This document shows positions 50,439 to 52,457 of a stretch of DNA of 64,000 nt, one piece after another; the first letter of the stretch is position 1, and each line of letters opens with the position of its first letter. Position numbers and translations under genes: made by a program. The notes beneath the pieces were generated by a model. It made no database searches and was not told the DNA's origin. It was given only the letters and a program-made list of their open reading frames with translations. This DNA comes from Candidatus Hodarchaeota archaeon. Its GTDB lineage: Archaea > Asgardarchaeota > Lokiarchaeia > Sigyniarchaeales > SOKP01. The stretch covers positions 32,388 to 96,387 of the forward strand of contig JBHLJY010000001.1 of NCBI GenBank assembly GCA_048887225.1, in the 5' to 3' direction.

Positions 50439-51410
50439 ATGAGCAGTGTAAGAAAAAAACTCTGGGAACCCTCGGAAGAATGGATCAAAAACGCAGAAGC
50501 AACCCGTTTTATCGAATTTGTCAATAAAAATTACGGACAAGATTTAAAAGGAGGTAAAGACCTTTATAAATTTTCTGTTGAGAAAATAGAAGATTTTTGG
50601 GACGCAATGTGGAAATTTTCAGATATTATCGTATCCAAACCTTACGATAAAGTTGTTGAAGACTTAAGTGTATATCCAGGTACAAAATGGTTTCCTGGAG
50701 CCAAGTTAAATTTTGCTGAAAACCTCTTGAAGTTTAAGGACGAACAATTGGCTTTTGATTTCCAAGGTGAAACGAAAGTATCTAAACAAATGACATATGC
50801 CGAATTAAATAAGAGAGTTGCACGTATAGCAAAATCCCTCCGTGAAATGGGGATTAAAACTGGAGATAGAGTTGTCTCTTATATTCCGAATTTAATTGAA
50901 ACACCAATAGCTATGCTTGCTGCTACAAGTATAGGCGCAATTTGGGCATCATGTGGTGCTGAACTTCAATCCAGTGCTGTTATCGATAGATTTGGGCAAA
51001 TTGAGCCAAAAGTACTCTTTTCAGTTGATGGGTATTACTATAGGGGTAAGGCTTTTAAAATTAGTAAAAATATCAAGGAAGTAGTCGATGCAATCCCCTC
51101 GATAGAAAAAGTAATTGTTGTTTCGTACATATCCGATGGTAAGCCAGACATTAGTGACATTCCCAAGGCAGTCCATTGGGATGATTTTATTTCTAAGGAG
51201 GAAGATCCACCAATCGAATTCGAACAATTGCCATTCGACCATCCTGTTTATATAATGTTTTCCTCTGGGACAACTGGAAAGCCAAAATGCATGGTCCAAA
51301 GTGCGGGTGGAGTTCTTATTAATCATTTAAAAGAACTAATACTCTCAACAGATTTAAAAAGAAACGATGTAATAAACTATATCACCGCGCCCTCATGGAT
51401 GATGGTATAA
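50439..51410 (+). CDS. Acetoacetyl-CoA synthetase-type acyl-CoA ligase, N-terminal segment (ends at in-frame TAA)
   Basis: [22 protein letters not shown]..., AMP-binding motif [15 protein letters not shown]. Ends ...APSWMMV* inside the WMMWNW motif. Confidence 0.8.
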   Translation: [323 protein letters not shown]

Positions 51411-51431
51411 GATCACCTTATTCCAGCCAAA

Positions 51432-52457
51432 ATGTGGAACTGGCTTATCAGTGCCTTAGCTGTGGGCGCCACGATATTCTTGTACGAGGGAAATCCGCTA
51501 TATCCAGATCCATTAAGATTTTTTGAATTAATGGAAAAACATAAGATCACGATATTTGGTACAAGCGCAGCTTATATCCACTACTTAATGGGATTGGGAG
51601 TAAAACCAGCTGAAAAGTATGATTTAAGTGCGTTAAGAGAGATTTCACAGACGGCATCAACTCTCTCTCCCGAAGGATTTGAATATGTTTATAGAGAAAT
51701 TAAAAAAGATCTTTACTTCAATTCAATAAGTGGGGGAACAGATATTAATGGATGCTTTGCCGGAGCAATACCAATTCTTCCAGTATATTCTGGTGAATTA
51801 CAAGGTCGTGCGTTAGCTATGAAAGTTGAGTCTTATAATGAAAATGGAGAGCCTATTGAAGATGAACAAGCCGAGCTGGTATGTGAGGCACCCGCTCCCT
51901 CAATGCCTACATATTTCTGGGCTGATGATGATAAGATGACAAAATATAATGCTGCTTATTTTGATTTTTATAAGGATAAAGGCAAAAATGTATGGAGGCA
52001 TGGAGACTACATAGTAATTCATAGCGATACGGGTGGCATTACTTTTTGGGGCAGATCTGATGCGGTTTTGAAACCATCAGGAGTCCGAATTGGAACGGCA
52101 GAAATTTACAATGTGGTTGAGCAACTGCCAGAAATAGCGGATTCGTTAGTGATAGGACAAAAGATCAGTGGTGATATACGAATTGTAATGTTTGTTCTCT
52201 TAAATGAGGGTTATGAATTGGATGATAACTTGAAAGCTAAAATTAAAAAGACACTACGGGAAAAAACCTCTCCAAGACATGTTCCTAAACTCATATTCCA
52301 AGCCCCTCCAGATGGTATACCATATACGTTTAGTAATAAAAAGGTCGAAATAGCAGTAACTAAAATTATTCATGGAATGTCCGTTGCAAACCGAGGGGCG
52401 TTAAGAAATCCAAACTCACTGGATTTCTATGAAGAAATCAAGAATGAGTTAAAATAA
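51432..52457 (+). CDS. Acetoacetyl-CoA synthetase-type acyl-CoA ligase, C-terminal segment (same frame as 50439-51410)
   Basis: Begins [22 protein letters not shown]. Continues with [33 protein letters not shown] and PRHVPK motifs of adenylate-forming enzymes. Confidence 0.8.
   Translation: [341 protein letters not shown]

Follow-up and report, generated by a model that had tools for sequence, protein, structure and literature searches.

We analysed a 64,000-nucleotide (64-kb) window of contig JBHLJY010000001.1, from a metagenome-assembled genome (MAG) of an Asgard archaeon labelled 'Ca. Hodarchaeota', in which an acetoacetate-CoA ligase gene is interrupted by 30 nucleotides (nt) carrying an in-frame stop codon. 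We lean towards reading this insert (51402-51431) as a relaxed bulge-helix-bulge (BHB) mini-intron of the ligase pre-mRNA, which would be excised by the endonuclease EndA, after which RtcB would join the exons. A first-pass annotation of the same DNA had offered three other explanations, namely a split gene, a recent pseudogene, and ribosomal bypassing; of these the split gene is still a live rival, and none is best supported. A BHB intron, which was absent from those options, accounts for most of the conserved features of the insert.

The interrupted ligase gene and its relatives

Two open reading frames (ORFs) in the same frame, with starts 993 nt apart, make up the ligase locus. The first (50439-51410) encodes 323 amino acids (aa) ending in ...APSWMMV and the stop, and the second (51432-52457) encodes 341 aa starting with MWNWLIS; between them stand the TAA codon (51408-51410) and then 21 nt up to the ATG. 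The proposal that both together form one full-length ligase is borne out. Deletion of 30 nt restores the motif SWMMWNW and yields a 662-aa acetoacetate-CoA ligase that scores 838 bits against the corresponding NCBIfam model (cutoff 639) and is colinear with more than 100 unbroken orthologues (659-668 aa, 84-89% identity), nearly all of which come from Asgard MAGs (Promethearchaeota and allied). Because the insert is bordered by an ATG repeat, there are four equivalent deletion registers, from 51402-51431 to 51405-51434, the two outermost being those named in the first-pass annotation. The motif had been described as contiguous and highly conserved, and it is: TGGATGATGTGGAAYTGG is contiguous in 78 of 80 homologous loci, the remaining two being insert carriers. 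In the public record the halves of the gene appear as an 'AMP-binding protein' and a 'hypothetical protein', the latter being exon 2 (MFX0186173.1, on a 436-kb contig of a 'Ca. Hodarchaeota' MAG). As annotation pipelines split the gene in this way, metabolic reconstructions of these MAGs will miss the enzyme. The parts of the gene are as follows, with the ratio of nonsynonymous to synonymous substitution rates (dN/dS) where available:

50439-51401, + strand: exon 1 of the acetoacetate-CoA ligase, codons 1-321, ending in ...SWM; dN/dS 0.04-0.11 between intron-bearing lineages
51402-51431, + strand: 30-nt insert AUGGUAUAAGAUCACCUUAUUCCAGCCAAA, the proposed BHB-type mini-intron, with an in-frame TAA inside; not present in 78 homologous loci
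51408-51410, + strand: in-frame TAA on the 5' side of the inner hairpin; present in 12 of 12 copies
51432-52457, + strand: exon 2, codons 322-662, starting with MWNW...; dN/dS 0.03-0.04

Copies of the insert were collected by a genome scan, by a metagenome pattern scan built on the non-degenerate Trp and Met codons, and from protein clusters of half-length products. These routes gave at least 12 copies, the metagenome route being counted among the matches listed. The insert occurs at the identical site and with the identical length in 12 independent assemblies (the window, L001, L026, L114, L195, and L201-L207) and in nine distinct sequences, and the 78 loci mentioned above are without it. Matches to the metagenome pattern TGGATG-N(9-39)-ATGTGGAAYTGG arose mostly by chance, the true inserts among the matches listed being L114 and L195. 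The match at L122 was spurious, and long matches at L003, L020, and L034 turned out to be downstream gene fragments.

These copies also bear on whether the locus is a pseudogene or an assembly artefact, two suggestions of the first-pass annotation to which we give almost no credence. An in-frame stop inside a conserved motif would be expected from either, and the annotation of the halves as a hypothetical protein and an AMP-binding protein could be taken the same way. However, 12 independent assemblies share the insert at one site, which contradicts an assembly error, and the insert sequence is itself conserved. Between lineages, the nucleotide identity of intron-bearing genes is as low as 77-78% and their synonymous sites are saturated (proportion of synonymous differences, pS, ~0.72), yet dN/dS is 0.03-0.05 in both exons. 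Excision leaves an intact ORF in all 12 copies, of orthologue length wherever the contig spans the whole gene, and no further stops, frameshifts, or other lesions are found in them. A recent pseudogene is refuted by this combination. TAA is moreover the main ordinary stop in the window (35 of 52 ORFs), which also led us to reject a genome-wide recoding of TAA. The purifying selection, the intact copies, and the ordinary role of TAA together imply a gene that works both before and after the stop; the deep divergence of the carriers implies that the insert has been kept over a long time.

Predicted fold and processing of the transcript

The insert and its borders contain the following elements of the proposed hBHBh' fold, in which h, H, and h' denote the outer, central, and inner helix:

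51391-51395, + strand: 5' strand CCUCA of the outer exon-exon helix h, pairing with 51433-51437
51396-51399, + strand: 5' strand UGGA of the central helix H, pairing with 51426-51429; invariant in all copies
51400-51402, + strand: bulge 1, UGA; predicted 5' cut after 51401
51403-51425, + strand: inner helix h', 51403-51411 with 51417-51425, and a 5-nt loop at 51412-51416
51426-51429, + strand: 3' strand GCCA of the central helix H
51430-51432, + strand: bulge 2, AAA (AGA in L206); predicted 3' cut after 51431
51433-51437, + strand: 3' strand UGUGG of the outer helix h, in Met and Trp codons

In the transcript, CCUCA of exon 1 (51391-51395) would pair with UGUGG of exon 2 (51433-51437), and the intron would fold into a hairpin (51403-51425). 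Pairing of UGG (51396-51398) with CCA (51427-51429) would then leave a 3-nt bulge on each strand, UGA on one and AAA on the other. EndA is known to cleave between the second and third bulge residues (PMC2738675), and an (αβ)2 EndA with an L1 loop and broad specificity has been reported for Asgard archaea (PMC5829648). In each bulge an enzyme of this kind would cleave behind the second nucleotide, which puts the two cuts after 51401 and 51431. RtcB would join the exons to give ...UGG AUG directly followed by AUG UGG..., which encodes SWMMWNW, and the released intron would be 30 nt long and probably circular. The predicted spliced junction consists of CCCUCAUGGAUG joined to AUGUGGAACUGGCUUAUCAG, with CCCTCATGGATGATGTGGAACTGGCTTATCAGTG as an allele-specific k-mer, and the junction of a circular intron would read ...CCAGCCAAA joined to ATGGTATAAG.... 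Unspliced mRNA would stop at the TAA in the hairpin, and splicing could gate enzyme production. We only infer the EndA cleavage, the ligation, and any regulatory role.

The conservation pattern of the insert follows this fold, and its consensus is AUGGUAUAAG-GUAUC-CUUAUACCA-GCCA-AAA. A hairpin around the stop had been noticed before; it is real and longer than described (51403-51411 with 51417-51425). The inner helix h' is a perfect helix of 9-10 bp in the consensus, pairs at eight of nine positions in the window (one U·U mismatch), and has 94% of its cells paired across the 12 copies. Its loop is hypervariable, with four haplotypes (AUCAC, UCUUU, GUAUC, and UAUUC), and the stem, the GCCA, and the AAA are conserved; the GCCAAA tail of the insert is an invariant pattern save for the AGA variant of bulge 2 in L206. 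The outer helix h has four of five pairs and a pair probability of 0.8-0.95 in most variants. Between h and h' lies a symmetric 6x6 internal loop (GGAUGA / GCCAAA), within which the UGG/CCA pairing (U96-A29, G97-C28, and G98-C27, giving the last two digits of the positions; A99·G26 is a mismatch) would place bulges on opposite strands and so produce the hBHBh' architecture. The 3' bulge AAA is canonical, with U96-A29 and A95-U33 as its flanks; on the 5' side the motif is relaxed, A99·G26 leaving a 4x1 loop. RNAalifold recovers h' and the 3-bp UGG/CCA helix independently.

The canonical cuts after 51401 and 51431 coincide with one of the four frame-restoring registers. In energy, the frame-restoring BHB conformer exceeds the open loop by only about 2.3 kcal/mol, and a 28-nt frameshifting register comes out 3 kcal/mol worse. 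When the insert was randomised, the same quality at the exact register was reached with p values from 9e-5 (shuffle) to 9e-4 (composition). An exon-exon helix with at least four of five pairs is possible at 9% of the gene positions, which multiplies the chance by 0.09. Across 364 kb of Asgard DNA, comparable geometry turns up at a rate of 1.9e-4 per (x, y) pair, and the chance of hitting one of the four correct registers is roughly 8e-4. Most of this significance stems from h' and h, the central helix alone being weak. Folding of the window variant to its minimum free energy (MFE) gave z-scores of -0.2 to -0.4, which are uninformative; this variant carries the U·U mismatch, and the BHB conformer is not the MFE structure.

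Comparative tests point in the same direction. In the 12-sequence alignment 86% of the cells are paired, vs 28-47% after sliding of the partners, and two helix changes are wobble-compatible (U-A to U-G and G-C to G-U). Since one strand of h and of H is fixed by Trp and Met codons, covariation cannot arise in these helices, and the conservation of the free partner serves as the test instead. The third positions C51392 (Pro codon) and A51395 (Ser codon) do not vary among the 12 intron-bearing copies; of 34 intron-less Asgard orthologues only 7 have CCCTCA, and the two sites are altered in the intron-less sisters L013 and L008, the L013 allele reading CCTTCA.

A number of observations weigh against a mini-intron. 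The central helix consists of only 3 bp plus the A·G mismatch, lies outside the MFE structure (P 0.04-0.4), and arises by chance with at least three of four pairs in ~25% of cases, and by plain pair count the 28-nt frameshifting register equals the frame-restoring one. No pair is changed on both sides in the 12-copy alignment, and four lineages each have a single mismatch in h'. The invariance of G51426 despite its mismatch and the synonymous conservation of exon 2 up to +21 nt lie outside the predictions of the model, and the direct ATG repeat together with the universal TAA is at least as natural under a split gene or bypass. An exact look-up of five spliced products gave zero matches in 15 billion proteins; a match would have pointed to a cDNA or to an identical allele lacking the intron. 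For the host, an EndA of this type is expected from the literature on Asgard archaea and an RtcB is presumed; the 64-kb window holds neither gene near the ligase locus.

Some of the conservation around the insert thus extends beyond the BHB, and further helices could compete with it or accompany it. A competing helix AGCCA/UGGCU (51425-51429 with 51441-51445) is part of the window MFE structure, and RNAalifold proposes a long-range helix that shows one compensatory change (G-C to A-U, in L201) and one break (in L204). These extra features may reflect alternative conformers, extra recognition elements, or the hitch-hiking of a recombining cassette. The stretches concerned are:

51438-51452, + strand: exon-2 stretch beyond the BHB with synonymous sites invariant in all intron-bearing copies
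51387-51392, + strand: strand GCGCCC of the possible long-range helix, pairing with GGGCGC at 51464-51469 and overlapping helix h by 2 nt

The gene could instead be expressed without any splicing, as two polypeptides of 323 and 341 aa that assemble to an active ligase, the second being made by termination-reinitiation 21 nt downstream of the stop. This split-gene reading is unlikely but deserves serious attention. It accounts for the conservation of the stop and the ATG in all 12 copies, for the strong purifying selection on both halves, and for the ATG repeat, which it requires as a start codon; gene callers and the NCBI annotation likewise give two proteins. The break would, however, fall inside an invariant seven-residue motif in the core of the adenylation domain. 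Neither the conserved hairpin and the invariant GCCAAA nor the fixed in-frame length of 30 nt is predicted by a split gene, the constraint on exon-1 synonymous sites that pair with exon 2 is likewise unpredicted, and both the scar-free placement and the precise loss of 30 nt in L013 would be coincidences. The first-pass annotation had seen no purine-rich ribosome-binding site in the spacer. That observation holds, and it is uninformative, because the use of Shine-Dalgarno (SD) motifs in this organism is near background. Upstream of the 52 ORFs of the window, in very AT-rich sequence, SD-like motifs occur at background level and 30 of 52 regions are without a 4-mer match, which suggests that initiation in this organism is mostly leaderless or SD-independent.

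Programmed translational bypass, in which peptidyl-tRNA(Met) would leave AUG 51402-51404, skip 27 nt, and land on AUG 51432-51434, is improbable. Of the hallmarks on which this idea was built, the short gap, a near stop, and a hairpin that begins within the take-off codon are present, and the AUG codons match in 11 of 12 copies. The stop, however, does not stand next to the take-off codon, since a Val codon (GUA or GUU) intervenes in all copies, and in L204 the take-off codon is AUA and the landing codon AUG. An SD-like landing aid is absent, and the conserved GCCAAA and the synonymous constraint in exon 1 are unpredicted. No bypass is known in archaea (PMC8211752), in agreement with the first-pass remark that it would be unprecedented there; if true, it would be the first such recoding in Archaea, in the lineage closest to eukaryotes.

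Lastly, the insert could be translated through UAA read-through or other recoding, giving a 672-aa product with a 10-residue loop V-X-..-L-I-P-A-K-M in the motif, which we hold to be very improbable. Seven of the 12 variable columns of the insert are third codon positions in the exon frame (hand count, p ~0.07, not significant), and some of the substitutions would leave the in-frame residue the same (ATT/ATA, CCA/CCG, AAA/AAG, and GTA/GTT). Against read-through, TAA is kept in all 12 copies and is the main ordinary stop of this DNA, the first residues after the stop vary (DH, GI, VF), and an invariant motif would hardly tolerate 10 additional residues. Two other candidates were rejected: a transposon footprint, as the element lacks inverted repeats at its ends and its palindrome does not lie in the middle, and a K-turn or C/D box, as GA is missing from the 3' strand of the loop.

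Two sequence resemblances at the locus were also recorded. The window/L001 variant contains at 51409-51419, in the loop and its flank, the sequence AAGATCACCTT, which resembles the 3' end of 16S rRNA, which we take to be GATCACCTCC; other variants do not show it, and it is probably a coincidence. A sub-threshold Rfam match to the speF leader (51260-51408; 16.7 bits against a gathering score of 37, E 0.035) was judged to be due to chance.

Distribution of the insert and genomic surroundings

The mini-intron that we favour is patchily distributed among closely related alleles. Around the junction L013 and L195 share 98-100% identity, and L013 lacks exactly the 30 nt; for other intron-bearing alleles there are relatives without the intron at 92-97% protein identity. 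A tree of distal exon 2 scatters the intron-bearing alleles over at least four positions. The gene itself is mosaic: between the window (50439-52457) and L001 (3001-5016) identity is 72-75% at the ends and 93-100% in the centre, and between the window and L195 it reaches 87-97% only in the first ~150 nt. The scattered tree placement and the mosaic gene imply that the intron was repeatedly lost or was recombined between alleles together with its invariant flanks. The mini-intron and these flanks (51387-51452) could move as a cassette from one ligase allele to another through recombination.

Several Asgard MAGs also contain copies of a C-terminal ligase fragment (~residues 595-662, 58-74% identity) 0.5-2 kb downstream of the intact gene, which may be remnants of duplication or recombination:

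L009 5843-5992: ligase C-terminal fragment copy
L020 5572-5790: ligase C-terminal fragment copy
L023 7085-7222: ligase C-terminal fragment copy
L026 2557-2667 and 4589-4717: two ligase C-terminal fragment copies
L034 5518-5649: ligase C-terminal fragment copy

In L205, a gene of 465 aa (1420-2817, - strand) with a weak LAGLIDADG_3 (homing-endonuclease-like) match lies directly downstream of the intron-bearing ligase.

Around the ligase, the window and L001 share ~95% identity downstream and no synteny upstream. Their labels conflict: the window contig is assigned to 'Ca. Hodarchaeota' and L001 (JBHLQY010000009.1) to 'Ca. Thorarchaeota', despite the ~95% identity. Likewise, the ligase P0065 is 85% identical to Asgard proteins and is labelled 'Ca. 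Nanopelagicaceae bacterium'. These conflicting taxonomic labels are likely due to mis-binning or mislabelling.

Within the window, no gene but the ligase is interrupted. A loose scan for BHB motifs combined with ORF fusion gave 105 matches in the window, all of them ordinary gene junctions, and Pfam searches on five other pairs of adjacent ORFs in the same frame identified distinct, complete genes in each case. A stricter scan of 364 kb of Asgard DNA produced no other convincing interrupted gene, so that the thought that similar inserts might disrupt further genes found no support. Neither the intron sequence nor the ligase gene occurs a second time in the window, and no tRNA genes were present on 42 Asgard loci for a comparison of intron style.

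The genes near the ligase include thiolases, a DUF35-like protein, and a methylmalonyl-CoA mutase, and this neighbourhood fits a role in acetoacetate and acyl-CoA metabolism. Immediately upstream, at 46189-50236 on the - strand, three genes are packed with gaps of 9 and 1 nt; they encode two GlcD-like FAD-binding oxidases and one CCG/4Fe-4S (GlcF-like) protein.

Significance and relation to known systems

As of 2020, BHB introns had been described in just two archaeal mRNAs, in the coding region of crenarchaeal cbf5 and in the 5' untranslated region (UTR) of the haloarchaeal HVO_1309 (PMC7714728). Our literature search found no later case, and none in Asgard archaea or in an acetoacetate-CoA ligase. 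If the mini-intron reading is true, the ligase would be the second protein-coding gene family with a BHB intron, the first in Asgard archaea and the first encoding a metabolic enzyme, and tRNA-type splicing of mRNA would not be a crenarchaeal oddity. The 12 variants and the one precise loss would offer a natural polymorphism for the study of intron origin, spread, and loss, and the insert would be a simple, testable substrate for Asgard EndA and RtcB. The finding would also bear on the origins of introns and on the ancestry of unconventional mRNA splicing of the HAC1/XBP1 kind.

The closest known parallel is the cbf5 pre-mRNA intron of Crenarchaeota, for which EndA-dependent BHB splicing in a coding region has been established (Watanabe 2002; Yoshinari 2006; Yokobori 2009; PMC2738675). 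Its BHB is usually relaxed and is cut by the (αβ)2 type of EndA, a catalytic codon is broken by the intron, and some lineages have lost it secondarily (PMC2738675). The ligase insert resembles it as a putative short coding-region intron in a conserved motif, with a predicted relaxed BHB at its borders and predicted cuts between the second and third bulge residues, in a host clade with an (αβ)2 EndA, and with a patchy distribution and secondary loss; the precise loss in L013 parallels the gain and loss of cbf5 introns (PMC2738675). The two differ in that cbf5 encodes a pseudouridine synthase of Crenarchaeota and the gene described here a metabolic ligase of Asgard archaea. Furthermore, the ligase insert is in-frame, in phase 0, carries its own stop, and is polymorphic among near-identical alleles, and splicing of cbf5 was shown experimentally, whereas that of the ligase insert is predicted. 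The Haloferax volcanii gene HVO_1309 (Schwarz 2020, PMC7714728) is similar in that EndA acts there on an mRNA rather than on a tRNA or rRNA, and differs in that its intron lies in the 5' UTR and has a canonical motif, in a euryarchaeon with an α'2-type enzyme.

The BHB introns of archaeal tRNA and rRNA share the hBHBh' architecture predicted here and the expected circular form of the excised intron, and tRNA introns range from 11 to 175 nt (PMC2738675), a range that includes the 30 nt of the insert. In contrast to these introns, the ligase insert sits in an mRNA, its central helix has 3 bp and an A·G mismatch, and its 5' bulge is relaxed. Bypass in phage T4 gene 60 and in the mitochondrial byp elements is defined by a take-off codon that is immediately followed by a stop (PMC8211752). 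The likeness to these systems lies in the matched codons around a short non-coding gap with a stop, and in the 5' hairpin; unlike them, one ligase copy has no codon match, and the ligase insert has an extra conserved 3' segment and an exon-exon helix.

Outside the Archaea, the nearest analogues are the HAC1 and XBP1 mRNAs, which are cut by IRE1 and joined by a tRNA ligase or RtcB, the XBP1 intron being 26 nt long. Like the proposed mini-intron, these are very short non-spliceosomal introns that interrupt a coding region; an endonuclease cuts at paired structured sites, and a ligase of the tRNA type joins the ends. They differ in their endonuclease, IRE1, and in their motif of two 7-nt loops, and no homology is implied. 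In HAC1 and XBP1 splicing gates the production of the active protein, and if the mini-intron is real, splicing could gate production of the ligase in a comparable way.

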